From Candidatus Thorarchaeota archaeon (GTDB lineage: Archaea; Asgardarchaeota; Thorarchaeia; Thorarchaeales; Thorarchaeaceae): a DNA stretch of 13,581 nucleotides. Shown here piece after piece: positions 1 to 13,581 of this stretch; position 1 is the first letter of the stretch; each line of letters starts with the position of its first letter. The position numbers and the translations under genes are program-made. The stretch lies in assembly GCA_003345595.1 (NCBI GenBank), contig PRDI01000105.1, positions 1 through 13,581 on the forward strand. The letters run 5' to 3'. The notes under the pieces are model-generated. The model made no database searches. It was given only the letters and a program-made list of their open reading frames with translations, and was not told the origin of the DNA.

Positions 1-1
1 C

Positions 2-376
2 ACTGGGGCAGGGAATGAATCCATGTTCGAGAGAATGAATGGCACTGACGTTCAGCGCATTCAGTTCATGAATGACATGTCAGATGTTGCGCAGGGTTTC
101 TTCAGCTGGGTGGATCAGGCAGTGATAACTCTGCCCGGAGGAGCAACTGAGGCTGTCAACGTGACAGCTTCCTACATGCCCATGGGAATGGGTGTGGCTG
201 TATACTTGGCCTACCCCAACTTCGACAATGGAACACTGACCCACGATCCATCGATAGGCCTGTATGAGAGCGGAAACCCCATCACTACGACCCCCGATAA
301 CATGCCAATTGTCCTCGGGATTGGCTTGGTGGCAGCAGTTGCCATTGCAGTAGTCGTTCTCCGCAGAAAACAGTAA
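2..376 (+). CDS. C-terminal part of a secreted/surface protein with C-terminal membrane anchor (5'-truncated by window edge)
   Basis: The frame is open from position 2 (TGAGNES-M...), so the ATG at 23 is probably internal. It ends in HDPSIG, a Thr/Pro linker (PITTTP), a hydrophobic helix (IVLGIGLVAAVAIAVVVL) and a basic stop-transfer tail (RRKQ). N-X-S/T sequons: NES, NGT, NVT, NGT. Confidence 0.8.
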   Translation, partial: TGAGNESMFERMNGTDVQRIQFMNDMSDVAQGFFSWVDQAVITLPGGATEAVNVTASYMPMGMGVAVYLAYPNFDNGTLTHDPSIGLYESGNPITTTPDNMPIVLGIGLVAAVAIAVVVLRRKQ

Positions 377-383
377 CCCATAA

Positions 384-418
384 GGTGGTGGACTGTGTCC
401 ACTACCGTTTTTCTTTTT
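384..418 (+). terminator. Stem-loop plus T-tract terminator
   Basis: GGTGGTGGAC (384-393) pairs with GTCCACTACC (397-406) as a 10-bp stem with one G-U pair and a TGT loop. It is followed by TTTTTCTTTTT (408-418) and starts 8 nt after the stop codon. Confidence 0.75.
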
Positions 419-496
419 AACAGAACAATCCTGTACACGCAACAAGACGGATGACACGCTCCAGAGTCAATAAACGCGAAACGATAGTGATTGACG

Positions 497-1492
497 ATGA
501 AAGGTTTCCTGCTAGCTCTGACAATCATATCACTAGCAGTCCCGATTGCTCTGCCTCTTCAGGTTCAGGCCGCCGATACTGATAGTGTCCTTTTTGATCC
601 CGTGGACATTCGAGCAATTATGCACGAGAATACGAGCACTTCATTGATGGTCGATGCGCGGGCGAACAATGTAGGCTCGTTGTCCATGTCCTCACTCAGT
701 ATCGGCATTGAATCACTAGAGCTGGAGGTCATTGCTGTTCGGGTTGACAATGAAACAGCCAATGGAGAAACAATCCTGAGAGATGACTACACCGAGATTA
801 CAGTCACACTTCCCAAGGTTCTGGAAGCGAATTCATCTGTCTGGCTTCATCTAGCACTTGTAGCTAGCGATCTCCAATCACCTCTTGTCATTGCCCAAGA
901 TGCCAGCCATGTTAGTGGCGATTTCTTATTCTATGTCAGACCGCTTTCGGTATTTGCCAATTTTACGTTCACTGCAGTTCTTCCACCATATGCATCTCTA
1001 TCTAACGATTATGTAGTGACCCTCTTTCCTCACTCCGATTCCAATTTCACTGATGGCCAATCACTCATATTTGTTTGGGACGTGCCGCTGCTCCAGCCCG
1101 GTCAAGAACGAGTGTTCATAATCAAGTATCAACTTCCAAACATCTCCACAGTTCAAGCACAATCATCATTTCTTGGAAGTCTTCTCTACGGAGCATTGGG
1201 TGTCATAGCTGGGCTTGCTTTAGCATTCGGTGGCCCGAGAGTGATTGAACGGTTGAAACGCCTTGGAGCAGTGAAATACGTAGGAGTCACAGCTGAAGAA
1301 GAGGAGGTTCTGGCGACCATCCGGGAGAAAGGCGGCTCATGTACACAGAAAGAGCTTTACAGTCTTTTTGACATGTCACAGTCGAAGATGAGCCTGATTC
1401 TTACAAATCTTGAGCAGCGGGGTTTGATTCGAAGACTAAAGGAAGGACGGGAGAATGTGGTCCACCTGATGGAGCCCAAGCAAGCTGGCTAA
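497..1492 (+). CDS. Membrane-anchored winged-helix transcriptional regulator (COG2512-like: signal peptide, extracellular beta-rich domain, TM helix, C-terminal MarR-like wHTH)
   Basis: Signal-peptide-like MKGFLLALTIISLAVPIALPLQVQA (ATG 497 preferred over TTG 491). TM segment FLGSLLYGALGVIAGLALAFGG. C-terminal TAEEEEVLATIREKGGSCTQKELYSLFDMSQSKMSLILTNLEQRGLIRRLKEGRENVVHL is typical of this archaeal family. Confidence 0.85.
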   Translation: MKGFLLALTIISLAVPIALPLQVQAADTDSVLFDPVDIRAIMHENTSTSLMVDARANNVGSLSMSSLSIGIESLELEVIAVRVDNETANGETILRDDYTEITVTLPKVLEANSSVWLHLALVASDLQSPLVIAQDASHVSGDFLFYVRPLSVFANFTFTAVLPPYASLSNDYVVTLFPHSDSNFTDGQSLIFVWDVPLLQPGQERVFIIKYQLPNISTVQAQSSFLGSLLYGALGVIAGLALAFGGPRVIERLKRLGAVKYVGVTAEEEEVLATIREKGGSCTQKELYSLFDMSQSKMSLILTNLEQRGLIRRLKEGRENVVHLMEPKQAG

Positions 1493-1502
1493 GAGTCCAT
1501 CT

Positions 1503-2105
1503 TCACTCTTCGCCTTCAGGACCAAGTTTCTTTCCCGGGGGCAAGTCATCCATCAGCAGTCTTTCAGACTCAGCTTCTCTTACAGCCGCCGTGGCCTTAT
1601 CACCGCCAATGTTCTCCAAAGCGCCGGCTGCAGTCTGCCTGACGAACATCGAATCATCATGCAGGACACCTATCAGTGGCTCGACGGCTGCAGTGTCCCT
1701 CCTTTCACCGAGCTGGGCAGCAGCGAGAATGCGCACCATGTATCTGGAATCTCTGAGGCAGCTGATGAGTTGTGTTGTTGCACGTGGGTCGTCTATCCCC
1801 CCAAGACGTTCAATGGCACCAAGCGAAACCTGTTCGTCATCGCTCCGCACTTCGGCTGCAAGGTCATCGATGATGGAACCCTGATCTGCCAGACTTCGAC
1901 TGCCCCTTTCGGACATTAGCACTCTGTGTGAAGTGCCCTCCGTAGCTCTCTGTTTCTTGACGGGAGCCGGGGCAGTTCGGGGAGCCTTGGTCTTCTCCGC
2001 TTTTGCCACAGTCTTGGCGGGTCCTTTCCTTGTGCTTACCGCGGGAGCCCTGCTCTTTGTTTCGCCTTTCTTGTCACCCTTCTTGGCGCTTGACGCCTTT
2101 GGCAA
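1503..2105 (-). CDS. HEAT (PBS-lyase-like) repeat protein with Lys/Ala-rich disordered N-terminus
   Basis: Three HEAT-like repeats (AIERLGGIDDPRATTQLISCL; VRILAAAQLGERRDTAAVEPLIGVL; VRQTAAGALENIG). The start is placed at TTG 2105 (MPKASSAKK), with GGAG/GTGAG upstream. The ORF-track extension to 2204 looks non-coding. Confidence 0.8.
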   Translation of the reverse strand: MPKASSAKKGDKKGETKSRAPAVSTRKGPAKTVAKAEKTKAPRTAPAPVKKQRATEGTSHRVLMSERGSRSLADQGSIIDDLAAEVRSDDEQVSLGAIERLGGIDDPRATTQLISCLRDSRYMVRILAAAQLGERRDTAAVEPLIGVLHDDSMFVRQTAAGALENIGGDKATAAVREAESERLLMDDLPPGKKLGPEGEE

Positions 2106-2235
2106 CTCACTATCTCCAAGCCTTGATGAGGGCTCAATGTCGGTCCACAGTTGCTCTAATAAACAGTCTGAGTCCTCTTTGTCATAGCAAAAACGCCTTA
2201 ACACACTTCAGGATTTCGCGTGTCTGGTGACCTCC

Positions 2236-2655
2236 TTGCATGAGTTCTCTGCTGCCTGCTCCATCGTGGAGACTGTTGTAGAGGCAGCAAGGAGTCATGA
2301 TGTCAAGAGGGTCAAGGCTGTGAACATTGAGGTCGGTGAGTTCACATTCCTTCTTCCTGAACAGCTGCGTTTCAATTTTGAGATTGCAAGTCAGAAGACG
2401 ATCGCCGAGGGCGCAGAGCTGAACATTAGGATGGTGAAGGGGAGGCTGATCTGTCGTGACTGTGGGCACGAGGGCGAGGCACAAAGCCCTGATGAGGCTC
2501 TGGGTCCTGCCGCCATGTTTGCACCGATGAAGTGCACCAAGTGCGGTAGCAGCGCAACTACAATCACTGGTGGCAAGGAGTTTCTAATAGCAGATATCGA
2601 GGCAGAAGTTGCGGCTCCCGTCGAGAAACAAAGGCCTAAACCAAAACCGCATTGA
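2236..2655 (+). CDS. hypA: Hydrogenase maturation nickel metallochaperone HypA
   Basis: The N-terminal MHE Ni-binding motif requires a start at TTG 2236, which has GGTGA at 2226-2230. Also present: VGEFTFLLPEQLRFNFE, two CxxC Zn motifs (CRDC, CTKC) and GGKEF. Confidence 0.95.
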   Translation: MHEFSAACSIVETVVEAARSHDVKRVKAVNIEVGEFTFLLPEQLRFNFEIASQKTIAEGAELNIRMVKGRLICRDCGHEGEAQSPDEALGPAAMFAPMKCTKCGSSATTITGGKEFLIADIEAEVAAPVEKQRPKPKPH

Positions 2656-3016
2656 GGATGCCGTCCTGCCCCGGGCGACTAGTGACCTTGGCACGACCTT
2701 TGGCTGTCTTGATGATCGTCCCTCGAGTTATGACCTTGCGCCGCTGGTAGTCTGTGTTTGACGGGTTCTTTTCAACATCCTGAATCTCGGCCCGGAATGT
2801 CTGGTTCTTTTTAGGGTCAGTGATGTTTACCATCTTCGCGCGCAATATTGGTCTCTTCTTGTTGTGAACGCCTTTGCTGTCGATTGTGCGCCTCTTGGGT
2901 TCACCGAGGAGTGTTTCTGTGGGGGAACGACCCATCTCCCACTTCCTCTTGCTCCTGAATTGCTTGATCTTTGCGCCAGTTGGCTTTCGACCAGACTTGC
3001 GATGCCATACGCCCAT
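2636..3016 (-). CDS. rps8e: 30S ribosomal protein S8e (eS8)
   Basis: RKPTGAK, KRKWEMGR, VITRGTII and AKVTSRPGQDGILNAVLV are hallmark eS8 motifs. 126 aa, with a GAGGT RBS upstream. Confidence 0.98.
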   Translation of the reverse strand: MGVWHRKSGRKPTGAKIKQFRSKRKWEMGRSPTETLLGEPKRRTIDSKGVHNKKRPILRAKMVNITDPKKNQTFRAEIQDVEKNPSNTDYQRRKVITRGTIIKTAKGRAKVTSRPGQDGILNAVLV

Positions 3017-3163
3017 ACTGACTACCTCTTGGCTTAGTCACTGACGCTCACTGTGAAGCAGTTTTAAGTCTTGCTCAGTGGCGGCGTTCAGGTCGTACTG
3101 AACATCTCCTTCAAATACGACGAACAGGCACATGACTATTGCAGTCTGGATGGAGGCCGCCAC

Positions 3164-4177
3164 ATGCCAAAGATAGAATCCGCCCACGGTGCTGGTGGGA
3201 GAGTGATGCAGAGTCTGCTGAAGGAAGTGATTATCCCCTCCTTTGGGCTTAGGAAGATTGGGAGCATAGGTCTGGATGAGATGGATGACGGAGCGACACT
3301 GCAAGCGAATGGTGCAGGCCTCATAATAACCGCGGATGCGCACACAGTTCAACCGCTCTTCTTTCCAGGTGGCAACATCGGCACCCTTGCTGCCTGTGGT
3401 ACAATCAATGACTTAGCTGTCATGGGCGCTAGGCCCATCGCAATGACAAACACGATAGTGATAGAGGAGGGCTTCGAGATTGAGACACTCCATGAGATTC
3501 TGAAGTCATTGAACGCCGTCATCGAACCGCTTGAGGTCGCGATGATTGCTGGCGACACGAAGGTCATGCCGAGAGGAACTCTTGATGGCCTTGTGATGTC
3601 CACATCTGGCGTCGGCACAGTATATCTGGACTCCCCGGTTCCAGACAGCGGCGTCAAGGCCGACGATGACATAATTGTCACTGGACCGATTGGGGATCAC
3701 GGGACTGCATTGCTGGCTCACAGAGAGGGACTCAAGTTTGAAACCGATTTGGTAAGTGACGTGGCTCCTCTCTGGGAACCGATACGTGACTGTCTTGACG
3801 TCGGGGGCGTACACGCAATGAAAGACCCGACTCGCGGTGGAACTGCAGTTGCCCTGAATGAGTTCGCATCCAAGTCGAGAGTCGAGGTTGAGTTGGATGA
3901 GGGCCGCGTGCCTGTCCGTCCTGCCGTTCGCTCCCTGTGTGACATTCTGGGTCTGGAACCTCTCCACATAAGCTGCGAAGGTCGAGCAGTTATGGCAACA
4001 GACCCCTCAGTGACCAGTGACATATTACAGGTTCTATCAGAACACAAGACGACCCGGGATGCATGTGTTATTGGCAAGGCTCACAGGGGTGTTGGAAGAG
4101 TGCTACTGAAGACGGCGATAGGGGGTAGAAAGGTCCTACAAGTGCCCTACGGAGAACCGGTGCCCAGAGTCTGCTAA
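3164..4177 (+). CDS. hypE: Hydrogenase carbamoyl dehydratase HypE
   Basis: AHGAGG, DDGA, FFPGGNIGTLAACGTINDLAVMGA, GDTKV, MKDPTRGG and the terminal PRVC with the catalytic C-terminal Cys. Start at ATG 3164 with GGAGG at 3152-3156. The upstream 31 codons in the ORF track are an extension. Confidence 0.97.
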   Translation: MPKIESAHGAGGRVMQSLLKEVIIPSFGLRKIGSIGLDEMDDGATLQANGAGLIITADAHTVQPLFFPGGNIGTLAACGTINDLAVMGARPIAMTNTIVIEEGFEIETLHEILKSLNAVIEPLEVAMIAGDTKVMPRGTLDGLVMSTSGVGTVYLDSPVPDSGVKADDDIIVTGPIGDHGTALLAHREGLKFETDLVSDVAPLWEPIRDCLDVGGVHAMKDPTRGGTAVALNEFASKSRVEVELDEGRVPVRPAVRSLCDILGLEPLHISCEGRAVMATDPSVTSDILQVLSEHKTTRDACVIGKAHRGVGRVLLKTAIGGRKVLQVPYGEPVPRVC

Positions 4178-4292
4178 ATCAGATTTGAATCAGCTTCGGA
4201 CGATGTGGTTGCCGAATACTCTGAGGGCTGGGAACAATGACCCAAAACAAAGCGAGAGTTTGCCAGTCACATCTAGATCGTTTCTTCGTCTT

Positions 4293-4850
4293 CTAGGGTG
4301 TTTCCGGGTTCTCTTCTCCCTCTTGGTCCCCGGAAAGAATACGCTTCAGCTGGAATTTCAGTTGTGCCTTCAGTTTGACCTTGTCAGAATCAAGACCAAA
4401 GTAGTCGGAGAAGAGCTGAGTTGTCGTGAGCATCTTGCTCCGCCCTTCTGGTACAGCATCTATGAACTTCTTCTCCTCAAGTTCCTTCACATGGTCATAG
4501 ACATGAGTACCCCTCTGGACAACGAGGTCCGACTGTAAGATGGGCTGTTTGAGAGCAATGAAGACCAAGGTCTGAAGAGTACCAAACGAAAGGAGTCCAC
4601 CAGGTATGAGTTTTCCTACCCGAGTGGTCAGTTCGGGTTTCAGCTGCAACACATACCTCTCCCTCGGCAAGTCCACAACCTCCAATGCCCCACCTCGTTG
4701 GTGATACTCGAAATTCAGGTCATCCAGAAGCTTCTTCGCGGTAGACTCTGCCTTTCCAATGATGTCTGCTAGCTCCTGCAGTGTCATTGGTCTGCCCGCG
4801 ACATAAAGCGCCGCTTCAAGTGTCACCAGGTCCTCATTCACACATATCAC
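4293..4850 (-). CDS. scpB: SMC-Scp complex subunit ScpB (kite)
   Basis: LEAALYVAGRPMTLQEL, LQTLVFIALKQPILQSDLVVQRG, HVKELEEKKFI and TTQLFSDYFGL. GTG 4850 overlaps the scpA stop (GTGA). An alternative start is GTG 4841. Confidence 0.95.
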   Translation of the reverse strand: MICVNEDLVTLEAALYVAGRPMTLQELADIIGKAESTAKKLLDDLNFEYHQRGGALEVVDLPRERYVLQLKPELTTRVGKLIPGGLLSFGTLQTLVFIALKQPILQSDLVVQRGTHVYDHVKELEEKKFIDAVPEGRSKMLTTTQLFSDYFGLDSDKVKLKAQLKFQLKRILSGDQEGEENPETP

Positions 4851-5566
4851 CTAGACCTTACACGCGGCTTAATACCCTCTGAGGGCTTCTCCGTTTCTTC
4901 CGGCGGAGGTACTAGCTTGACCCATATTATGTCCTTCTTGTCCATCCAGAGGTCAATGAATGCTCTTGCATAGAGATGCAGCAGTGAGAAGAAGATGCGA
5001 ACTATCTCTCTTCGCGTGTTATTGACCAGCAGATCAGTGAATCTGACGACTTCACCCATTTTGACGATCTTGCTGATGTCTGCATATACGTCGGCGATGG
5101 TTTCCTCGATGTTCACCCGGGACGTATCCATGCTGAAAGACAGGGGTCCTGCCTCTGATTTTCCGTGCCGCGACTGAGGAATTGGCCGTTCTCTTATGCC
5201 CTTGCTCAGAACTCGGTCCATTGCCATGAGCAGTTCCTGCAGGGTTACTCTTCTGTTTGTGAGCCTGAATGGCGGAAGTATCTGGGGGATAGCGAGTTCC
5301 TCTTCCTCCTCACCTACTTCAGGAGGAATCAGGCCAAGTTCCAAGAGGTCTCTAGTCTTCTTCATGAAGATGACTGATGCAGAATAGAGCGCGTTTCCTG
5401 AAACTCGGAAGTCAATGTCCCCCATCCTTCTCATTTCTTGCAGGAAGCCTGCAACCAGCTTCCCGACATCCACGTTCCAAGGTTCGATGTTGTCCAGCTG
5501 AAGAACATCAGTGAGGAGGATGTAGGGTGGCGACGCCCAGAAGGGCGTATCATCACTCGTGCTCAC
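4847..5566 (-). CDS. scpA: Segregation and condensation protein A (kleisin)
   Basis: IEPWNVDV, DFRVSGNALYSAS, RRVTLQELL and C-terminal wHTH IVRIFFSLLHL. It lies between smc and scpB with GTGA overlaps. Confidence 0.93.
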   Translation of the reverse strand: MSTSDDTPFWASPPYILLTDVLQLDNIEPWNVDVGKLVAGFLQEMRRMGDIDFRVSGNALYSASVIFMKKTRDLLELGLIPPEVGEEEEELAIPQILPPFRLTNRRVTLQELLMAMDRVLSKGIRERPIPQSRHGKSEAGPLSFSMDTSRVNIEETIADVYADISKIVKMGEVVRFTDLLVNNTRREIVRIFFSLLHLYARAFIDLWMDKKDIIWVKLVPPPEETEKPSEGIKPRVRSR

Positions 5567-8500
5567 GCTGACTCAGCCACCTCCTGAAGGTCCACTGAAA
5601 CAATCCTGGATATGCCATCTTGGTTTGACACGCCAATGAGCATGTCCGCTTTTCGCACGGTGGTGTCCCTGAGCGACACCACTATGAACTGGGAGTTCTT
5701 GGACATTTCTGATATCAACAGTGCGACGTTGTGCGCATTGACATCGTCCAGGGCCGCGTCTATCTCATCAAAGACATAGAAGCTTGCGGGGTTGTGCATT
5801 TGAATGGCGAAGATCAATGCCAGTCCCGTGAGTGTCTTCTCTCCGCCGCTCATCGCATCAAGAGAAACCAGTTCTTTGCCTGCAGGTTTAGATCTGACAG
5901 TTATGCCCCCCATCAGCGGGTGTTCAGCATTCTCTAGCATCAGGTTTGCCTCGCCGTCTGGCGAGAGCTTGGCAAACACCTTCGAGAAGTTGTCTGCAAT
6001 ATCGTTGTATACTTGGAGGAATTTCTGGGTCTTTTCTTTCTCCAGCTCCTCCATGAACGACAGGATCTCCTTGTGTTCCTTCTCAAGCTGCGTCTTCTTC
6101 TCGACAATCTCGTCGTATCTGTCTTTTTCAGTATCATAATCCGTGAGCGACTTCAGGTTGACTGGACCCATTGCCTCAAGTTCTCTCTCAATCTCTTTGA
6201 TCTTCTCTTCAAGGTCCTCGATCGCTTTGGCAGTCAGCTCACGTTGCCCCGCTCTCTTCTCGAGCTCTGTTTCCACATCGCTCATCGTGGCTAGCTGGGC
6301 AGTGAGTCCGACCAAGTCGGTTTCAAGGCGCGAGCGTTCTACTTGGAGCCGGTAGACGGCTTTCTCGTTTCCAGTTTGTGACTCCTTGATTTCTTCCTGC
6401 TTCAGCCTGAGGTTTCTGATGGTTTCTTTCAGTTTCAGCTGCCGTACTCGCTTATCTTTGACTGCGGTGTCGATCTGTTCTCTCTCTGACTTCAGTTTGA
6501 GGAAATCGCTCTCTTTTGCCCTAAGGTCTGCCTCAATAGATGTAGCATCCTCTTCCAGACTCGGCAATACTGCCTCCAGTGACGCGATTCGGAGTTCCAG
6601 TTCTACTGACTTGGGCAAGTATCTCTCTTGAATCGAAACTCTCAGTGCGGAGGTTTCAGTCCGAATCCTCTCGTGGTTTCGCTTGTGCTGTTCTAGGACT
6701 TCCTTCAGATCTCTCAAGTCCTGATTCAACTTGCCCGTGCCTGACTTCGCCAGTATTTCGTTGCACTGGTCTCTTTGTTCTCTGACTCTTTCTCTCTGAG
6801 CAGTGAGCTCCTCATCTCGAGTCCTGAGCTCGGATATCTGCTTCTCCAGTTCCTCAATTGTGACTCTTGCCTTGTCAGTCTTCTCTTTCAGTTTCTCTGC
6901 TTTTTGTTCCCTGTCCCTGAGTTTCTCCTCTAGGCCCTTCAGTTCCAACCCGTCCCTGTAATTCCGCTTAGAAATGTCTTCAATCTCGCGGTCAAGTGCC
7001 CTTTTCCTGCTCAGGAGCTCTTCCTGCTGTTCTTTCAACTCAGACAGGATGTCCTCAAGGCCCTTGAGGCGTGAAATCAGGTCTGGGCTTGTGTCCTCCT
7101 CTTGAAGTGAGAGCCCCGTTGAATCTCTATGGAAGTGTCCTCCAGTGATGAGTCCTGAGCGTTCTACCAAGTCGCCCTCCAACGAAACCGCTCTACAGTT
7201 GTCGAAACCCACGGCCTTTGCGGTATCGAAGTCCTTGGTCACAAGTGTGTCCGAAAACACGAACTCAAAGGCCGGACGCATCTTCGGGTTAAAGGTCACA
7301 AGGTCCAGTGCATAGCCTATCACGCCCTCTCTCTGTGGCTTCCGACTCGGTCTTCGTGTCTTTATCCTGTTGAGTGGGATGAACGAGGCCCGTCCTACTC
7401 GCTCTTTCTTAAGCACCTCAATACATCGGGTGGCCACATCCTCATTCTCTACGACTATGTGGGACAGTCTGTTACCCGCCGCTACCTGCATGGCTGTGGC
7501 ATAGTCCGGGTTTATGACCCCCAGTTCTGCAACTGTGCCGTAGACCCCGTCAATCTCTCCCTTGTCGCGTAGTTCAAGCACTCTGGCCAAGGCTCTCCGG
7601 CGTTTCAAGAACGTCTCTTCGGCCTCTCTCAATGCATCCTGACGAGCCTGCAGCTTAATCAGTTCTTCCTTTGTCGAGGCAACGAGCTTGCTACTCTCAC
7701 TCACCTGCGCGTCCACTGTGGCAAGTTGCCTCTCAGTATCCTCAAGTTCCTGCCGCCTTCCAACTTCGGACTCATGCAGTTTCTGAAGGGCTGTAGTCTT
7801 TGCCGGGACGATGAATCTGAGTTCTAGCAGTTCCTCGTCTGTCTTCTTCGTGGAATCTTCAGCATCACGTAACTCCTCGTACGTGAGCCCCAATTCCTTA
7901 CTATCTGACCTTATGGTAGACCTGATTTCAGTCACACCCTCATCGAGGTGTGCCATCTGTGTGTTGAGGTCCTGAAGCCTTAGAGTGGCTTCATAGTATG
8001 CAGACTGCTCTTTCTCAAGAAGACCCTCGAGTCGTGCAATGTCAGTTGAGCACTCCAGAATCTCCTTGTCAAGACTCTCAAGTTCGAGTTGCTTCTCCTT
8101 GGTGCCATGTTCCGCAGCGGTCATTTGGTCTTTCGTGGAACTCAGCTGTTTCTCAAGCGCGTCCCGTTCTTGTCTGGTTCTGTCATAATCACTCTTTGCA
8201 CGATCGAGCTTGCTCCGAAAGTGTTCAACCTCTGCAGTCATGGTACCATACTGCTCAGAAACTCTTGAGGCGTCACCGCCGGTTATCAGGTCGATCTCCT
8301 GTTCTATTTCTCCGATTTCGGACTCGGTCTTGGCCATGTCTGCTTCGACCTTGGTCAGCTGCTTGGCAAACCTCTCAGCATCTGCGGCTCGCTCTGCAAG
8401 TGTTTCGTCTATCGTAGTTGTCCGGTTCTTGGACTTGATGACTGTCCAAGTCAAGCTCTCAATTCTGATCTGCTGTATCTGATCACGTAGACCGGTGTAA

Positions 8501-9153
8501 CGGAGGGCGTCTTTCCTCTCCGCTTCCAGACGCTCCAGCTGATGACGACGTTCTTGAAGCTGTGTTTCGACCTTGCCTAGGTTGGTTTCACTCTCTGCAA
8601 GCTTCTTGAGTGCTTTCTCTTTCTGCTCGTCATAGGCTGATATGCCTGCAATCTCCTCAATGAGCTTCCGTCGTTCAATTGGGCTGACTTTGACCATCTG
8701 GGCAATCTCGCCTTGGAGTACAAGATTGTAGCCGTTTGGGTCGACACCTATGCCGCCGAGGATGTCTATGACCGCCGCACGGGTGACCATCTTGCCGTTT
8801 ATCCTGCAAACCGACTTACCAGATTCGTCCAGCTCTCTCTCAACAACGACTCTATCGGCGTCAATCTGCAGTTTTCTGTCCCTGTTATTGAAGCAGAGCT
8901 CCACAATAGCTGACTTGGCCTTTGGAGGCATGTCTGGTTTAGGTGGAGTATAGAGCAGCTCCGAGAAGACATTAGCACGCAACGTCTTGGCACTCAGCTG
9001 CCCGAGCACGAAAAGAATCGCATCAATCACGTTGGACTTGCCTGACCCGTTCGGCCCGACGATGCATGTGAAGCCAGGGCTCAGGTTAATCGTGACGGTG
9101 TCCCGGCCAAATGACTTGAAGCCTTTGCATACTAGCTTCTCGATGTGAACCAA
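5563..9153 (-). CDS. smc: Chromosome segregation protein SMC
   Basis: GFKSFG, Walker A GPNGSGKSN, Q-loop VLQG, long coiled coils, hinge (GVYGTVAEL...GRASFIPL...LEGDLVERSGLITGG), signature MSGGEK and Walker B/D-loop YVFDEIDAALD. 1196 aa, TTG start. Confidence 0.99.
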   Translation of the reverse strand: MVHIEKLVCKGFKSFGRDTVTINLSPGFTCIVGPNGSGKSNVIDAILFVLGQLSAKTLRANVFSELLYTPPKPDMPPKAKSAIVELCFNNRDRKLQIDADRVVVERELDESGKSVCRINGKMVTRAAVIDILGGIGVDPNGYNLVLQGEIAQMVKVSPIERRKLIEEIAGISAYDEQKEKALKKLAESETNLGKVETQLQERRHQLERLEAERKDALRYTGLRDQIQQIRIESLTWTVIKSKNRTTTIDETLAERAADAERFAKQLTKVEADMAKTESEIGEIEQEIDLITGGDASRVSEQYGTMTAEVEHFRSKLDRAKSDYDRTRQERDALEKQLSSTKDQMTAAEHGTKEKQLELESLDKEILECSTDIARLEGLLEKEQSAYYEATLRLQDLNTQMAHLDEGVTEIRSTIRSDSKELGLTYEELRDAEDSTKKTDEELLELRFIVPAKTTALQKLHESEVGRRQELEDTERQLATVDAQVSESSKLVASTKEELIKLQARQDALREAEETFLKRRRALARVLELRDKGEIDGVYGTVAELGVINPDYATAMQVAAGNRLSHIVVENEDVATRCIEVLKKERVGRASFIPLNRIKTRRPSRKPQREGVIGYALDLVTFNPKMRPAFEFVFSDTLVTKDFDTAKAVGFDNCRAVSLEGDLVERSGLITGGHFHRDSTGLSLQEEDTSPDLISRLKGLEDILSELKEQQEELLSRKRALDREIEDISKRNYRDGLELKGLEEKLRDREQKAEKLKEKTDKARVTIEELEKQISELRTRDEELTAQRERVREQRDQCNEILAKSGTGKLNQDLRDLKEVLEQHKRNHERIRTETSALRVSIQERYLPKSVELELRIASLEAVLPSLEEDATSIEADLRAKESDFLKLKSEREQIDTAVKDKRVRQLKLKETIRNLRLKQEEIKESQTGNEKAVYRLQVERSRLETDLVGLTAQLATMSDVETELEKRAGQRELTAKAIEDLEEKIKEIERELEAMGPVNLKSLTDYDTEKDRYDEIVEKKTQLEKEHKEILSFMEELEKEKTQKFLQVYNDIADNFSKVFAKLSPDGEANLMLENAEHPLMGGITVRSKPAGKELVSLDAMSGGEKTLTGLALIFAIQMHNPASFYVFDEIDAALDDVNAHNVALLISEMSKNSQFIVVSLRDTTVRKADMLIGVSNQDGISRIVSVDLQEVAESA

Positions 9154-9347
9154 GGCACCATCCCTTCCGACTTCCTAGATGGCCATTTCTGGGCAGAGGC
9201 GTGTCTGACTATTATCTGGGTGATACGTGACACTAAATACGGTTGGTATGACGGTGGTAATACCACGAATGATACCCACGTATTCCAATCTTAGCGAATC
9301 CGCTTACATAAAGCTACAAAAAGATAGCTCTGGGACCTACCTTCCCA

Positions 9348-9716
9348 TCAGGCCTTGACCATCGACATGAGCGCCCGTTTGAGTGCGATTCTGAGAAGGC
9401 CCATTGACTCTTTCGCGCCTTCTCCAGCGATTGCAGCAAGGACTAGTTGTACGTCACCCAAGACTATGACATATCCCTTGTCCGATGCGATACTGATTTC
9501 CTTCAGACTGCCTTTGTCAACCGCGCTGACTAGTTGCGACGAGTTGGCAGATATCTTGGCGATCAGCGATGCAACGTCCGTGTGCTTGATGCCTGCCGTA
9601 ACGGTGTGACCGAACAACACCTTGCCCTTGTCATCACAGACCACGATGCCCTGTATGTCAGCATTCGCCGCCATGGTCTGCGCGACGACTGACTCTATCT
9701 TGGCCTTGTCCACCAT
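9348..9716 (-). CDS. Roadblock/LC7 domain protein
   Basis: Helix followed by IQGIVVCDDKGKVL, a helix, then GSLKEISIASDKGYVIV-LVLAAIA and a final helix (MGLLRIALKRA), which fits the Roadblock alpha-beta pattern. Start at ATG 9716 with GGAGG upstream; 122 aa. Confidence 0.85.
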   Translation of the reverse strand: MVDKAKIESVVAQTMAANADIQGIVVCDDKGKVLFGHTVTAGIKHTDVASLIAKISANSSQLVSAVDKGSLKEISIASDKGYVIVLGDVQLVLAAIAGEGAKESMGLLRIALKRALMSMVKA

Positions 9717-9771
9717 CGTGACAGTCCTCCGAAGAGTTTCGCCTAATATCATCAACTAGAGGGCTCTGAGC

Positions 9772-9786
9772 TGTTTATATCTTCTG
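9772..9786 (-). promoter_or_regulatory. Candidate archaeal TATA box for the minus-strand Roadblock gene
   Basis: The minus strand reads CAGAAGATATAAACA, with TATAAA (9779-9774) about 60 nt upstream of ATG 9716 in an otherwise GC-balanced region. Confidence 0.35.
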
Positions 9787-10033
9787 TGCCGACATCTTGA
9801 GATGGCAGAGTTCTCCTCTTACTCCAATTCTCATGATGCTGCGTGACGTTCATTGTGAGTTCGAGTGATCTGGACGCAGGAGTCTCCTAATCCGGGGTCG
9901 GCACTTGGGCCTATGTCCTACACGTCTGTTCGGTTTGTGATTCTTCGATATACAGAAGCGGAAACATCAGCAATTGACTTAAAGCACAATGGGCCGCCCC
10001 TGATTGGCAACAGTCTTCTGAGGAATAGTATCG

Positions 10034-11665
10034 ATGCCCATGCTTAGGACCAGTTCAGAGGCCTTTCCAGCCTCAAGAGACATGATTAGCGAGATCCCGT
10101 ATGTCCTGCGTGTTGAGTTCAGAGACCTAGCACGCGACGTAACAAAAATCACAGGAATACCAATCACATGTCACAAGTGTAACGGTTTTCTGATGAGCGC
10201 AGATCAGATTGTTGAGGACAGGAAGGTCGGGAAGCACTTCGTCTGCCCCTTCTGTGGCACTTTGAACATGATTGCAGGTGAAGTAGTCCTTGCTGGCTCT
10301 GACACGGATTTCATCATCAAGCCAGGTCCAGACAAGACCGAAACCACAACCACTGCAGCCACCACTGCGGGCGGTAGGTCATTTCTGGCCGTGATTGATG
10401 TGTCCGGCTCAATGGCTGGAGCCAATCTGGCAGCAGTGAAGAGGAGCCTGACCACCTCTGTTGAAAGCCTAGCTGCGAACTCTCCCGACACGTTGTTCGG
10501 ATTGATAGAGTTTGAGAGTTCTGTTCTGTTTCGCAATATGGAAACTGGTGAGGCGGTGCAGCTTCCAAGAGAGTCCTTTGCGAGCTTCGAAACCATCACT
10601 GAAGCCGCACGAAGACTCATGGACCGAATCAAGCTCATCAAGGTGGGAGGAAATGCTGGACCTCTGAAGCGTCACATCAATGCCCTGAGAGAGCAGGGCG
10701 GGACAGCTCTTGGTCCTGCGGTAGCCATGGCGTGTGTCATTGCCAAGCACCGAGGTGTAGGCAGGGTGGTCCTTCTCACAGACGGACTTGCGAACGAAGG
10801 CATTGGTGCTCTTGAGGGCTATCAGGTCACTCCTGGAAACAAGTACTATGAAGACCTAGGGCGTTTGTTCAAAGACAATGGCACAGCGATTGATGTAGTT
10901 GGGATCGCCACTGGTGCAGGGATGGAGCTGAAAACATTGGGCCTGATGCCTGAAGCCACAGGTGGCCAGATGTATTATGTCACTCCAAATGAGCTGGACA
11001 AGAGCCTGTCGGAGCTAGCGGGAGCATCGTTGCTTGGCCGCGATGTCCAAGTTCGGCTTCTTACTCCATCAGGCGTGAAAGTCAAGGACGCTTCAGGCGT
11101 ATCAAGAGCCGTTGTAGACGAACTTAGGACTAAGAGCGAAAGCAGGATAGGGGTTGTGGGTGAGAATCACGAGCTCTATTTCGAGGTGGAGCCAGAGAGC
11201 ACGCTCAAGGCTAAGGAAGTCCCAATTCAGGTGCAGGTCGAATACACTGACCAAGACGGATCCAGACGAATGCGCACTTTCACTAAGAAGCTGCAGGTCA
11301 CTTCAGATGAGAAAGAGTTGGTCAAGACAATGGACCCGACAATCGGCGCCACTTTCGTTGTCCAGAAGGCTGGAGAGGAGGCCTTAGGTGGTGGTCGTGC
11401 CGCTGGCATGAGTCGGATTGCCAGTTACAGGGCTGCAATGAAGAAGAAGGCCAAGGCCGCGCCAGCGCCGGTACAGGCGAAGCTGCAGAGAGCCGATGAT
11501 GCGCTTGCCACAGAAGAGGAGAACATGGAACGTCAGGAAGCAGCAGTGGGCAGAGCACGAGCTGGAGCGCCATCAGCTGCAGCAGATCAAGCAGTAACTG
11601 AGAACTTGGCCCAAATGAGGAAAGCATCCAAGGCTCTATTTGGCGATGAAGAGGATGAGAAGTAG
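10034..11665 (+). CDS. Sec23/Sec24-like zinc finger + vWA (trunk) + beta-sandwich protein
   Basis: PITCHKCNGFL...FVCPFCGTLN (C46, C49, C71, C74) fits the Sec23/24 Zn-finger pattern PxxCxxC...CxFCxxxN. The vWA domain has IDVSGSM, GGTALGPA, VVLLTDGLANEG and EATGGQMY. It is followed by beta-rich VQVRLL...IQVQVEYTDQDGSRRMRTFT, which resembles the Sec23/24 beta-sandwich, and an Ala-rich helical tail. Confidence 0.85.
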   Translation: MPMLRTSSEAFPASRDMISEIPYVLRVEFRDLARDVTKITGIPITCHKCNGFLMSADQIVEDRKVGKHFVCPFCGTLNMIAGEVVLAGSDTDFIIKPGPDKTETTTTAATTAGGRSFLAVIDVSGSMAGANLAAVKRSLTTSVESLAANSPDTLFGLIEFESSVLFRNMETGEAVQLPRESFASFETITEAARRLMDRIKLIKVGGNAGPLKRHINALREQGGTALGPAVAMACVIAKHRGVGRVVLLTDGLANEGIGALEGYQVTPGNKYYEDLGRLFKDNGTAIDVVGIATGAGMELKTLGLMPEATGGQMYYVTPNELDKSLSELAGASLLGRDVQVRLLTPSGVKVKDASGVSRAVVDELRTKSESRIGVVGENHELYFEVEPESTLKAKEVPIQVQVEYTDQDGSRRMRTFTKKLQVTSDEKELVKTMDPTIGATFVVQKAGEEALGGGRAAGMSRIASYRAAMKKKAKAAPAPVQAKLQRADDALATEEENMERQEAAVGRARAGAPSAAADQAVTENLAQMRKASKALFGDEEDEK

Positions 11666-11892
11666 GTTCTCGATGAGTCCTCTCCTCCTTGTGGCTGCAT
11701 GGTTCGCCGCGAAACGAGTGTGTCTAGTCACGCATTGCCTGCGGCCCCTGTGCTAGTCAGAACATTGGCGCGGTCGGCATCTCAGAATGCGCAATTGGCC
11801 TGTTGAGAAGACCCTGTTGCCACAAGTCTCAAATACCCAAGCGTGGCGTAGAAATGCTAAATGCACAATTGACAGCAGCGGGGATTCTACAG

Positions 11893-12192
11893 TTGGTTAG
11901 CCAGGACAAACTCCGATCGATTCTCTCCAAAATCAAGGCGCAAGGGGGAGTCCGAGGAGTTGTTGTCACAAACATGGAAGGCTTGCCACTTAGCAGTGAT
12001 CTAGACCCCGAAACGACTGAAGCTGTCGCCGCCATAATAACCTCCCTCGTGGGCAAGGCGCTCGATGCAGTGAGAGAACTCCGAGAGGGGTCTCTGTCAT
12101 TCCTGACTCTCGATACATCTAAGGGTCAGATTAACATAGCACCCGACGTGAAAGAGGGGTTGATATTAGTAGTCCTGAAGAAACCGAGCTGA
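11893..12192 (+). CDS. Roadblock/LC7 protein, dynein light chain roadblock (DYNLRB)-like
   Basis: 99 aa from TTG 11893 (MVSQDKLRSIL), with GGVRGVVVTNMEGLPLSS, KALDAVREL, LSFLTL and IAPD. The ORF-track extension to 11803 is probably not translated. Confidence 0.88.
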   Translation: MVSQDKLRSILSKIKAQGGVRGVVVTNMEGLPLSSDLDPETTEAVAAIITSLVGKALDAVRELREGSLSFLTLDTSKGQINIAPDVKEGLILVVLKKPS

Positions 12193-12207
12193 AAGGAGAA
12201 CGATGAC

Positions 12208-12675
12208 ATGAGCGATCCAAAGGTCTTCGACAAGATCCTCACTGAGATCATCCGCCAAGACAAGGGCATAAAGAAGGTAATCCTTGTGGACAAGACTGGG
12301 CTGACAATTGCAAACGTGAGCAAGCTCAGCTACTTTCCGATTGACACAGATTCAATAGGTGCGATTGCGAGCGCAGTGTTTTGCGCCAGCGAGGAACAGG
12401 GGAAGAACCTACAGATCGGGGAGCTTGAGATTGTCACCTCCGAGTTCTCAGAAGGTAAGATATTCGCCTCTGCATGCGGCAAGGGTGTTCTTTGTGTTGT
12501 TTCCGAGTCTGAGGTGAACATTGGCCTTATCCGGCTCATCATGAAGAAGCAGGGTGTTCAGCTCGCAGAAGAGTTGGAGAAGTTCTTGGCAGTCGAACCC
12601 ACAGCACCATCAAAGGGCAAGGAGCTGGATGAAGAGGATCTGAAGTCTGCTCTGGCAGAGCTCGAAAAGGTGTGA
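12208..12675 (+). CDS. Roadblock/LC7 (MglB-like) protein with acidic C-terminal helix
   Basis: GIKKVILVDKTGLTI, IGAIASAVFCAS, VNIGLIRL, then a linker and ELDEEDLKSALAELEKV. GGAG RBS at 12195-12198. Confidence 0.9.
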   Translation: MSDPKVFDKILTEIIRQDKGIKKVILVDKTGLTIANVSKLSYFPIDTDSIGAIASAVFCASEEQGKNLQIGELEIVTSEFSEGKIFASACGKGVLCVVSESEVNIGLIRLIMKKQGVQLAEELEKFLAVEPTAPSKGKELDEEDLKSALAELEKV

Positions 12676-12732
12676 GCCCTCGCTGGTGGCCGGAACTGAC
12701 CTGTCAAGTCGGCTCGTGTCTACTTGACGGAC

Positions 12733-12746
12733 AAAGGCTTTTATGA
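12733..12746 (+). promoter_or_regulatory. Candidate BRE/TATA promoter upstream of the GTPase gene
   Basis: AAAGGC followed by TTTTATGA in the 247-bp gap between the Roadblock and GTPase genes. Confidence 0.35.
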
Positions 12747-12922
12747 GAGTACAATGTTACCACAGCCAGTTACCCGATTTGGGATGCCCGGCTCGGGAAC
12801 TGATACTTGGCTCTCAGAGCATGAGAATTGCCCCGTGGCACGTACTCTCACACTGGTGGTGTTTCTGCGCCACCATGGCGGGGACGGTCCACAAGAACAG
12901 CATAGCACCGAGGTGTTGAAAC

Positions 12923-13486
12923 GTGCGCAAGGATGACAAGGGCAGAATTCATCTCAAGCTGGTGTTCTATGGTCCGAGCCTAGGCGGCAAGACGACTGCG
13001 CTTCGTTGGCTGTACGGAAAGGTCGAGGGTCTCCAGAAGGGAGAGTTTACGGCAATCGAAGATGAAACAAACCGCACCCTGTTCTTTGACTACGTACCGA
13101 TGAGCGCAGGAGGTCGTGTCCTCTTTGACGTGTTCACTGTTGCAGGACAGAAGCGACACAGACACCAGAGGAAGGTTGTGCTCCAAGGGACTGACGGGAT
13201 ACTGTTCGTTGCGGACTCATCTCCCGACCAGCGAGAGGAGAATGTTGAGAGCTTCGAGGAATTGAAGCTCTTCTTAGGTGATGTACTGGGCCGTGATATT
13301 CCCATTGTAGTCATGCTGAACAAGCGTGACCTGCCCAACAGGATGTCTCGTGATGAGATGCTTGATCTACTGGGACTCGGTGGTAACGTACCGATTTACG
13401 AAACCATCGCCGTCCAGGGCGTAGGAGTTAAAAGAGCCTTCCAGGCCATAGCACGGGAAGTCATCCTTAAGAGAATGTACAAGTGA
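12923..13486 (+). CDS. MglA-family small GTPase (Ras superfamily)
   Basis: G1 YGPSLGGKTT, G2 RTLFFD, MglA-type G3 TVAGQ (no DxxG), DGILFVADS, G4 NKRD and G5 ETIAVQG. GTG start with GAGGTG at 12910-12915. Confidence 0.95.
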   Translation: MRKDDKGRIHLKLVFYGPSLGGKTTALRWLYGKVEGLQKGEFTAIEDETNRTLFFDYVPMSAGGRVLFDVFTVAGQKRHRHQRKVVLQGTDGILFVADSSPDQREENVESFEELKLFLGDVLGRDIPIVVMLNKRDLPNRMSRDEMLDLLGLGGNVPIYETIAVQGVGVKRAFQAIAREVILKRMYK

Positions 13487-13505
13487 ATGCACCTAGGTGA
13501 GTCTG

Positions 13506-13581
13506 ATGAGCGAGTCGCGGGGCGATACACTCGAGGGAGTCCTGAACGAGCTGCAAGGCAGTATTCCCGAGATTGAGGCCT
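13506..13581 (+). CDS. Probable Roadblock/LC7 protein, N-terminus only (3'-truncated by window edge)
   Basis: AGGTGAG RBS at 13495-13501 and ATG 13506, giving MSESRGDTLEGVLNELQGSIPEIEA. This matches the first helix and entry into the first strand of Roadblock domains. Only 25 codons are visible. Confidence 0.65.
   Translation, partial: MSESRGDTLEGVLNELQGSIPEIEA

Follow-up and report, generated by a model that had tools for sequence, protein, structure and literature searches.

Positions 1 to 13,581 of the Candidatus Thorarchaeota archaeon contig PRDI01000105.1 (assembly GCA_003345595.1; this whole stretch is hereafter the window) encode on the plus strand, at 10034..11665, a 543-residue Sec23/24-like protein, P0001, whose open reading frame (ORF) is intact and includes the stop codon. 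We propose, with moderate confidence, that P0001 is an Asgard Sec23/24-like scaffold that docks through a MIDAS (an adhesion site that depends on a metal ion), that it is kin to the circularly permuted Ras protein CPRas1, and that its gene was inserted into a Roadblock/MglA gene cluster. Sec23/24 homologues of Thorarchaeota, reportedly first described by Zaremba-Niedzwiedzka et al. in 2017, are often listed among the eukaryotic signature proteins and taken as a hint that the archaeal ancestor of eukaryotes had a vesicle coat. P0001 is almost certainly orthologous to the Asgard Sec23-like proteins already published, as their Thorarchaeota member, and is in that sense known; it is 68 to 92% identical over its full length to more than 100 Thorarchaeota proteins, and the "SEC24 family transport protein" of Thorarchaeota SMTZ1-45 is a 69% identical orthologue. 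According to the available text of the study of the Asgard proteins (PMC11914678, Nat Commun 2025), these keep the domain arrangement of Sec23 but for the gelsolin domain and its GTPase-activating protein (GAP) residue, lack Sar1-contact residues, and retrieve Sec23 by Foldseek; that text was not found to mention a conserved MIDAS, a kinship with CPRas1, or how the gene came to its position.

P0001 is predicted to contain every Sec23/24 domain except gelsolin

An AlphaFold (AF2) model of P0001, built with an alignment of 150 representative homologues, reached a predicted local distance difference test score (pLDDT) of 94.8 and a predicted template modeling score (pTM) of 0.93. Searched against the PDB with Foldseek, its best matches were exclusively Sec24 and Sec23 chains (E 2e-29 to 2e-23, template modeling (TM) score 0.62–0.71). 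VIA-align gave Z scores of 29.6 to Sec24A and 29.4 to Sec23A with 486–498 of the 543 residues aligned, the aligned range running from model residue 1 to 537–542, in Sec23A from residue 13 to 617–629, and in Sec24A to 940–945. The gelsolin domain of Sec23A, going by published domain boundaries, presumably starts right after the end of this range. According to the model and the Sec23A and Sec24A alignments, P0001 has no gelsolin domain and ends with the helical domain. We conclude that, by the model, every Sec23/24 domain except gelsolin is present, in the order found in Sec23.

The domains are laid out along the plus strand as follows. The N-terminal strands (residues 1–40, 10034..10153) are visible in the secondary structure of the model and enter the VIA alignment from residue 1; in Sec23/24, the N-terminal strands are part of the beta-barrel. 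The zinc finger (residues 43–81, with C46, C49, C71, and C74; 10160..10276) is recognized by its conserved cysteines and by Pfam zf-Sec23_Sec24 at an E value of 7.9e-4, below the Pfam cut-off, and the isolated Sec23A zinc finger (2yrc) was matched by the family profile. A disordered linker rich in Thr, Ser, and acidic residues follows (residues 97–115, TETTTTAATTAGG; 10322..10378), and low pLDDT makes residues 101–115 the sole uncertain part of the model (58–77, and below 50 at residues 110–112). The trunk, a vWA domain (residues 116–331, 10379..11026), was identified by Pfam (Sec23_trunk 4.4e-9, above the cut-off; VWA and VWA_2 also matched) and by the structural alignments, and the beta-sandwich (residues 332–424, 11027..11305) by Pfam (Sec23_BS 5.6e-8, just above the cut-off), the model, and the structural alignment. 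The VIA alignment delimits the helical domain (residues 425–543, 11306..11662), which has an acidic C-terminal end.

A first-pass annotation, made from the DNA letters, had described a zinc finger, a Thr-rich linker, and a beta-sandwich within a truncated Sec23/24-like architecture that leaves no room for gelsolin. Its motifs and residue numbering agree with Pfam and the model, and the architecture agrees with Pfam, Foldseek, and VIA-align, while the "short helical tail" that it listed is in fact a complete Sec23/24-type helical domain aligned to Sec23A 617–629. Its expectation that P0001 would lack the classical arginine-finger GAP activity of Sec23 was sound: because the domain carrying the catalytic Arg is missing from the model, P0001 is predicted to be unable to act as a Sec23-type GAP, and the absence of the gelsolin domain is published for the Asgard Sec23-like proteins in the available text of PMC11914678.

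The Pfam scan of P0001 found no GTPase domain, with 45 residues lying ahead of the zinc finger, and no VIT domain. The sequence shows neither a hydrophobic N terminus nor a signal peptide, suggesting that P0001 is soluble and cytosolic. The Thr, Ser, and acid composition of the linker is kept in 120 Thorarchaeota orthologues and is not kept in other Asgard lineages; this Thorarchaeota-specific segment may be regulatory or merely flexible.

The MIDAS is near-invariant and may serve in docking

The trunk of P0001 carries a complete MIDAS, as the first-pass annotation had noted, composed of D122, S124, and S126 in the motif IDVSGSM (D122-V-S124-G-S126, 10397..10411), T224 in GGTALGPA (10703..10705), and D250 in LLTDGLAN (10781..10783). 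We counted conservation over the 150 representative homologues, Asgard and eukaryotic. D122 was kept in 131 of 131, S124 in 132 of 134, S126 in 131 of 134, T224 in 146 of 146, and D250 in 147 of 147, and the four zinc-finger cysteines were near-invariant in 125–131 homologues. When human Sec24A was aligned to the family profile with HMMER, the corresponding stretches read FDVSHNA, QSALGPAL, and FQTQ-LPTLG, such that the second Ser, the Thr (now Ser), and the Asp (now Gln) are replaced and three of the five residues are lost. The MIDAS of Sec23 is probably more degenerate still than that of Sec24A. Because these residues are near-invariant across homologues, we conclude that the MIDAS of the Asgard/CPRas1-type family is under strong constraint. 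We infer that the intact MIDAS is the ancestral state because ArnB retains one (PMC12852372).

For the mode of action, we slightly favor MIDAS-dependent docking, by analogy to other vWA domains. P0001 would be a rigid docking scaffold, made of the Sec23/24 core without gelsolin and bearing a complete MIDAS. D122, S124, S126, T224, and D250 would hold Mg2+ or Mn2+, leaving the metal's coordination to be completed by a side chain, acidic or phosphorylated, from a partner protein, as in the general vWA/MIDAS mode of binding.

CPRas1/VWFA proteins appear to be the nearest eukaryotic kin of P0001

We searched P0001 with phmmer exhaustively over 1.84 billion cluster representatives and obtained 982 matches, 610 of them at E <= 1e-10. 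Archaeal proteins of about 520–560 residues ranked first and were followed by many of 600–950 residues (E 1e-33 to 1e-22), whose C-terminal halves align to P0001 residues ~130–470. Among the latter are P0164, named "circularly permutated Ras protein 1-like [Diadema setosum]" (E 1.3e-33), P0177 from a nemertean, also under a CPRas1-like name, and P0234 from the amoebozoan Pyxidicula. The CPRas1-like matches carry, by Pfam, Ras in two stretches together with zf-Sec23_Sec24, Sec23_trunk, and Sec23_BS, and the family consensus is IDxSGSM / GxTALGPAL / LCTDGLANxG. Thus, the resemblance to CPRas1 that the first-pass annotation had pointed out is real. Further eukaryotic members come from Entamoeba, Planopodium, choanoflagellates, and the stramenopile Platysulcus; the nearest clusters in the protein Atlas include one named CPRas1, and ciliate and chordate clusters were added from the same source. 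The zinc finger, the VWA/"Sec23 trunk" region, and relatives of CPRas1 that lack the circularly permuted Ras (cpRAS) domain were noted by Elias & Novotny in 2008 (PMC2430557); in the literature searched, we found no paper treating cpRAS together with Asgard.

Scores from pairwise and profile comparisons point the same way. P0001 scored 133 bits against CPRas1-type proteins and ~20 bits against any Sec24. The family profile found Sec24A at 1.3e-27, across the zinc finger, trunk, and beta-sandwich, and Sec23A at 4e-13. An Asgard-only profile scored 89.8 bits against yeast Sec24, 87.6 bits against Sec24A, 47.5 bits against ArnB, and 37 bits against Sec23, and a eukaryotic CPRas1/VWFA profile scored 73 bits against Sec24A and 56 bits against yeast Sec24; compared with each other in hhalign, these Asgard and CPRas1/VWFA profiles aligned at E 4e-79 over 444 columns. 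Among the groups compared, ArnB was detected by the Asgard profile alone. Given this and their closeness to CPRas1/VWFA, the Asgard proteins look like the least-derived form. The tail after the beta-sandwich has a median of 134 residues in the eukaryotic clan and 115 in Asgard, and gelsolin was not matched in the few long-tailed eukaryotic members scanned; the eukaryotic clan has no room for a gelsolin domain.

We built a FastTree phylogeny of 144 rows and an IQ-TREE phylogeny of 71 rows (LG+C20+F+G4 PMSF, quick search), both unrooted and without Sec23/24 or ArnB, in which the Asgard families f1 (the family of the window), f2, f9, f12, f16, f19, f24, and f27 are represented. In both trees, one branch with a support of 100 splits the sequences of Asgard genomes from all named eukaryotic sequences, and P0001 lies outside the eukaryotic clan, on the Asgard side. 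A single subclade (support 92), nested deep in the eukaryotic clan beside cpRAS-less proteins of Entamoeba, comprises the cpRAS-bearing proteins. We conclude that the nearest eukaryotic kin of P0001, as judged by sequence, are probably the CPRas1/VWFA proteins and not Sec23/24 of coat protein complex II (COPII). The COPII proteins would then be a more divergent relative with gelsolin, the assignment of the ancestral state being a reconstruction.

Two unusual architectures occur among the eukaryotic relatives. In P0181 / P0276, from the transcriptome of the choanoflagellate Acanthoeca spectabilis, an Actin domain (Pfam 1.3e-70) is joined to the Sec24-like vWA module, either as a genuine fusion or through a chimera in the transcript assembly. 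P0180, a 1089-residue metagenomic protein of the eukaryotic clan, has Kelch and ankyrin repeats C-terminal of the vWA module.

Distribution of the Sec23-like gene

The Sec23-like gene was matched in 75 of 201 sampled genomes of the phylum. It occurs in 42 of the 43 genomes from the window's own family (f1), where orthologues are ~70% identical, in 13 of 19 of f12 (members named Hermodarchaeia; Hermod below), in all six of f19 (Freyarchaeota; Frey below), in 4 of 5 of f16, 3 of 3 of f27, 3 of 40 of f9, 1 of 3 of f24, and in the single genome of f2; one of seven f14 genomes gave a weak partial match, and no genome was matched in the remaining 18 families. The gene is single-copy in almost all genomes, with no pair of the Sec23/Sec24 type. 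One f27 genome has in addition a 107-residue ORF about 10 kb from its full-length gene (L028 16125-16331; G190:C84:20825-21031), which matches the N-terminal strands and zinc finger alone, at 35% identity to residues 7–75; this stand-alone zinc-finger ORF is reminiscent of the arrangement in which ArnA acts in trans.

Insertion of the gene into a pre-existing Roadblock/MglA cluster

Downstream of the Sec23-like gene lie two Roadblock genes and a small GTPase gene, and this order is kept in 22 of 23 loci examined in the Thorarchaeota family. Three genomes nevertheless have a GTPase orthologue in this cluster and no Sec23-like gene beside it: one from Frey (orthologue 62% identical), one from Hermod (61%), and one of the Thorarchaeota family itself (G055, 93%). 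There, the order is AIR-synthase-like, ScpB, ScpA, SMC, Roadblock | Roadblock, Roadblock, GTPase, with the divergent Roadblock genes ~250 bp apart in G055, and the Sec23-like gene resides on another contig or, in the closed Frey chromosome, 860 kb off. The Roadblock/MglA cluster was present in five of five genomes tested. Because the cluster exists without the gene in Hermod, Frey, and one genome of the Thorarchaeota family, we conclude that the Roadblock/MglA cluster is an old unit and that the Sec23-like gene was inserted into its divergent intergenic region within the Thorarchaeota family. The cluster works without the Sec23-like gene in most Asgard lineages.

Outside this family, the linkage was not seen. 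At 14 loci of seven other families, neither a Roadblock gene nor an orthologous GTPase lay within ~5 kb of the Sec23-like gene, and an all-against-all comparison of the ORFs around these homologues revealed no neighbor common to several of the seven families. In one f9 genome, the Sec23-like gene has directly upstream of it another small GTPase (L030 4138-4809; Pfam Arf 1e-8, Ras 4e-8), which is not the orthologue of the MglA-type one.

In the window, the insertion is flanked on one side by minus-strand genes for ScpB (4293-4850), ScpA (4847-5566), and SMC (5563-9153), each assigned by Pfam, translation, and synteny, and by the Roadblock/LC7 gene P0006 (9348..9755, minus strand; Pfam Robl_LC7), which is divergent from the Sec23-like gene and adjoins SMC in Thorarchaeota, Hermod, and Frey. 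On the other side, all on the plus strand, are the short Roadblock/LC7 gene P0003 (11803..12192; Robl_LC7 1.4e-15), the MglB-like Roadblock gene P0004 (12208..12675; Robl_LC7 6.8e-11 and a weak NCBIfam MglB match), and the small GTPase P0005 (12923..13486). P0005 has the G3 motif TVAGQ (switch II) and scored 136 bits (E 1e-38) in phmmer against the MglA proteins of Myxococcus and Thermus versus 51 bits against Arf4, which places it in the MglA family and not with Ras as far as its sequence tells. A conserved promoter-like element, TTGCCACAAGTCT (11817..11829, plus strand), stands directly upstream of the short Roadblock gene and is kept in Thorarchaeota genomes both with and without the Sec23-like gene at the locus. 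The true start of P0003 is probably the ATG at 11851 or a later one. The listed TTG start (11803) overlaps the conserved upstream element, and the ATG at 11851 lies ~20–30 nt past an A/T-rich "CTCAAATA" stretch and would fit a leaderless archaeal transcript.

Several further features of the locus deserve record. Window positions 3071-13486 compared with L049, L050, and L051 show that the cluster is collinear across three Asgard families (Thorarchaeota, Hermod, and Frey), a long-lived linkage of chromosome-condensation genes with a Roadblock/MglA polarity-type module, and the Roadblock-Roadblock-GTPase part is also present in an f16 genome (L052). The MglA-type GTPase is unusually strongly conserved, being 91–99% identical across Thorarchaeota genera whose Sec23-like proteins share 54–70% and still ~61% identical in Hermod and Frey. 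Relatives have a fourth Roadblock-like ORF after the GTPase (L034 8383-8763, L052 8655-8903), which in the window would fall past 13581. A small minus-strand ORF beside the AIR-synthase-like gene (window 2636-3016) keeps its position and is 74% identical in G055 and 49% identical in Frey. The 117-residue ORF antisense to ScpB (4185-4538, plus strand), matched solely by the corresponding antisense frame of G055, is probably no gene. One wetland metatranscriptome contained contigs that match 10308-10458, 10664-10874, and 10929-11153 at or close to full identity and one (11868-12404) that spans both downstream Roadblock genes, with 11159-11730 not covered; we take this as weak evidence that the locus is expressed.

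Discussion

Together, the model, the conservation counts, the profile comparisons, and the loci outline P0001 as a gelsolin-less Sec23/24 scaffold with a putative MIDAS docking function. Several points weigh against this account. Selection to keep the gene linked to the GTPase cluster may explain the conserved gene order in 22 of the 23 loci. The claim that CPRas1 is nearer to P0001 than Sec23/24 derives from scores and not from a rooted tree, and fast evolution of Sec23/24 could give the same score pattern. Two members of the Asgard clan, P0143 and P0147, are labeled as bacterial metagenome-assembled genomes (Eremiobacterota and Armatimonadetes), which could reflect horizontal transfer or mis-binning; on the 40.8-kb Armatimonadetes contig (L053; gene 6001-7569), the flanking genes are metabolic and do not discriminate a bacterium from an archaeon. 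Finally, the docking mechanism draws on analogy to other MIDAS domains.

The most serious competitor holds that P0001 is a proto-COPII coat or effector for membrane shaping or coat assembly; the MglA-type GTPase would recruit or switch it, and the Roadblock proteins would act as GAP or guanine nucleotide exchange factor. We regard this as unlikely. The fold is that of the COPII inner coat, the Sec23-like/Roadblock/Roadblock/GTPase order recurs in the Thorarchaeota family, another small GTPase adjoins the homologue in the f9 genome, and relatives of the scaffold became tied to GTPases twice in eukaryotes, through the Sec23-Sar1 contact and the cpRAS fusion. However, the gelsolin domain with its catalytic Arg is absent, the GTPase belongs to the MglA family, and the Roadblock array has its own conserved upstream element. 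The cluster is moreover unchanged without the gene in Hermod, Frey, and G055 and occurs in every genome tested, versus 75 of 201 for the gene, which has one copy per genome and no Sec23/Sec24-type partner. In the available text of PMC11914678, coimmunoprecipitation of three Asgard Sec23-like proteins with Asgard Arf was weak and insensitive to nucleotide state.

The same evidence bears on the suggestion of the first-pass annotation that fusion to a GTPase in eukaryotes and neighborhood to one in this genome both point to an ancient vWA-GTPase partnership. That step is not supported: the neighboring GTPase is of the MglA family, the neighborhood arose by insertion, no GTPase neighbor is conserved elsewhere, and the cpRAS fusion is nested within the eukaryotic clan. 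The fusion and the Thorarchaeota neighborhood are two late, independent events with non-orthologous GTPases and therefore provide no evidence for one ancient partnership. A direct link between P0001 and the neighboring GTPase is in our estimation unlikely. That the scaffold has been associated with small GTPases several times (the Sar1 contact, the cpRAS fusion, the Thorarchaeota gene order, and one f9 neighbor) is a lead, not a finding.

Less probable still is that P0001 is a phospho-switch regulator like ArnB, in which the vWA, beta-sandwich, and helical core with its MIDAS would work as in Sulfolobus ArnA/ArnB and phosphorylation of the Thr-rich linker would control the assembly of a complex. 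ArnB (8s05), which its PDB entry describes as the "archaeal ortholog of the Sec23/24 core motif", was among the lower-ranked Foldseek matches (4.6e-15), aligned in VIA-align with a Z score of 25.8 over 364 residues (8s05_A), and was detected by the Asgard profile. It also retains a MIDAS and makes use of numerous phospho-Thr sites and of a partner with a zinc finger (PMC12852372), and the Thr/Ser- and acid-rich composition of the linker is kept throughout the 120 Thorarchaeota orthologues. However, the zinc finger of P0001 is in cis, Pfam finds no FHA protein or kinase encoded in the window, the Thr-rich linker is absent from other Asgard lineages, and Sec23/24 align better and over more residues (~490 versus 364). 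The idea that P0001 is a generic prokaryotic vWA protein of the YfbK/VIT/BatA type with incidental Sec23/24 Pfam matches, to which many NCBI names ("VWA domain-containing protein") and structural matches to the bacterial vWA protein 4fx5 (Foldseek 7.5e-17; Z 22.6 over 369 residues) and to ITIH1 (Z 22–23 for the two) might lend color, is refuted by the profile, Foldseek, and VIA results and is extremely improbable, since those two matches cover just ~320–370 residues without the zinc finger, the best sequence and structure matches are all Sec24/Sec23 over the full length, the zinc finger and beta-sandwich align with Sec23/24 in Foldseek and VIA-align, and neither a VIT domain (Pfam) nor a visible signal peptide is present.

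We return to the MIDAS-docking scaffold as the preferred account. If CPRas1/VWFA proteins are indeed the nearest kin and the MIDAS, lost in Sec24A, is used, then inferring the function of the Asgard proteins from COPII is unsafe, and the Asgard family becomes a handle on an unstudied eukaryotic CPRas1/VWFA family that probably dates to LECA, the last common ancestor of eukaryotes. The "coat plus GTPase switch" cluster of Thorarchaeota arose by insertion into an older Roadblock/MglA cluster, a result that tempers claims based on gene neighborhood. A bolder and tentative extension, which we consider possible but would not bet on, is that the Asgard proteins are the prokaryotic counterpart of a third, LECA-age, MIDAS-bearing CPRas1/VWFA branch that keeps the ancestral design, that COPII Sec23/24 are derived through gain of gelsolin and loss of the MIDAS, and that the GTPase pairings reflect an old GTPase-regulated docking platform.

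Comparison with known systems

P0001 can be set against five known kinds of protein. It departs from YfbK/VIT-type vWA proteins in having a Sec23-type zinc finger and in lacking a VIT domain and a visible secretion signal. With Sulfolobus ArnB/ArnA (PDB 8s05), it shares a vWA domain with a MIDAS, the beta-sandwich, and the helical bundle; unlike P0001, ArnB lacks a built-in zinc finger, ArnA supplying one in trans, and it acts with an FHA domain and kinases. COPII Sec24 and Sec23 have the same multidomain fold over ~490 residues and significant profile similarity. In contrast to them, P0001 lacks the gelsolin-like domain and hence the Arg finger, its MIDAS is intact whereas that of Sec24A is degenerate, there is one Asgard gene per genome instead of a Sec23/Sec24 pair, and the pairwise score is as low as ~20 bits. 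The CPRas1/VWFA proteins, which have the highest sequence similarity to P0001 among the eukaryotic proteins found (E 1e-33), share the four-Cys zinc finger, the vWA domain with IDxSGSM / TALGPAL / TDGLANxG, the beta-sandwich, the helical end, and the absence of gelsolin. They differ in a long N-terminal extension that Asgard proteins do not have (median residues ahead of the zinc finger, 137 versus 43 in Asgard) and in a ~40-residue insert after the MIDAS motif that is absent from the Asgard proteins, and CPRas1 additionally has the cpRAS GTPase domain that P0001 lacks. Among the Asgard Sec23-like proteins, finally, P0001 is a regular member in which nothing essential is different, at ~69–70% identity to the named Thorarchaeota proteins.

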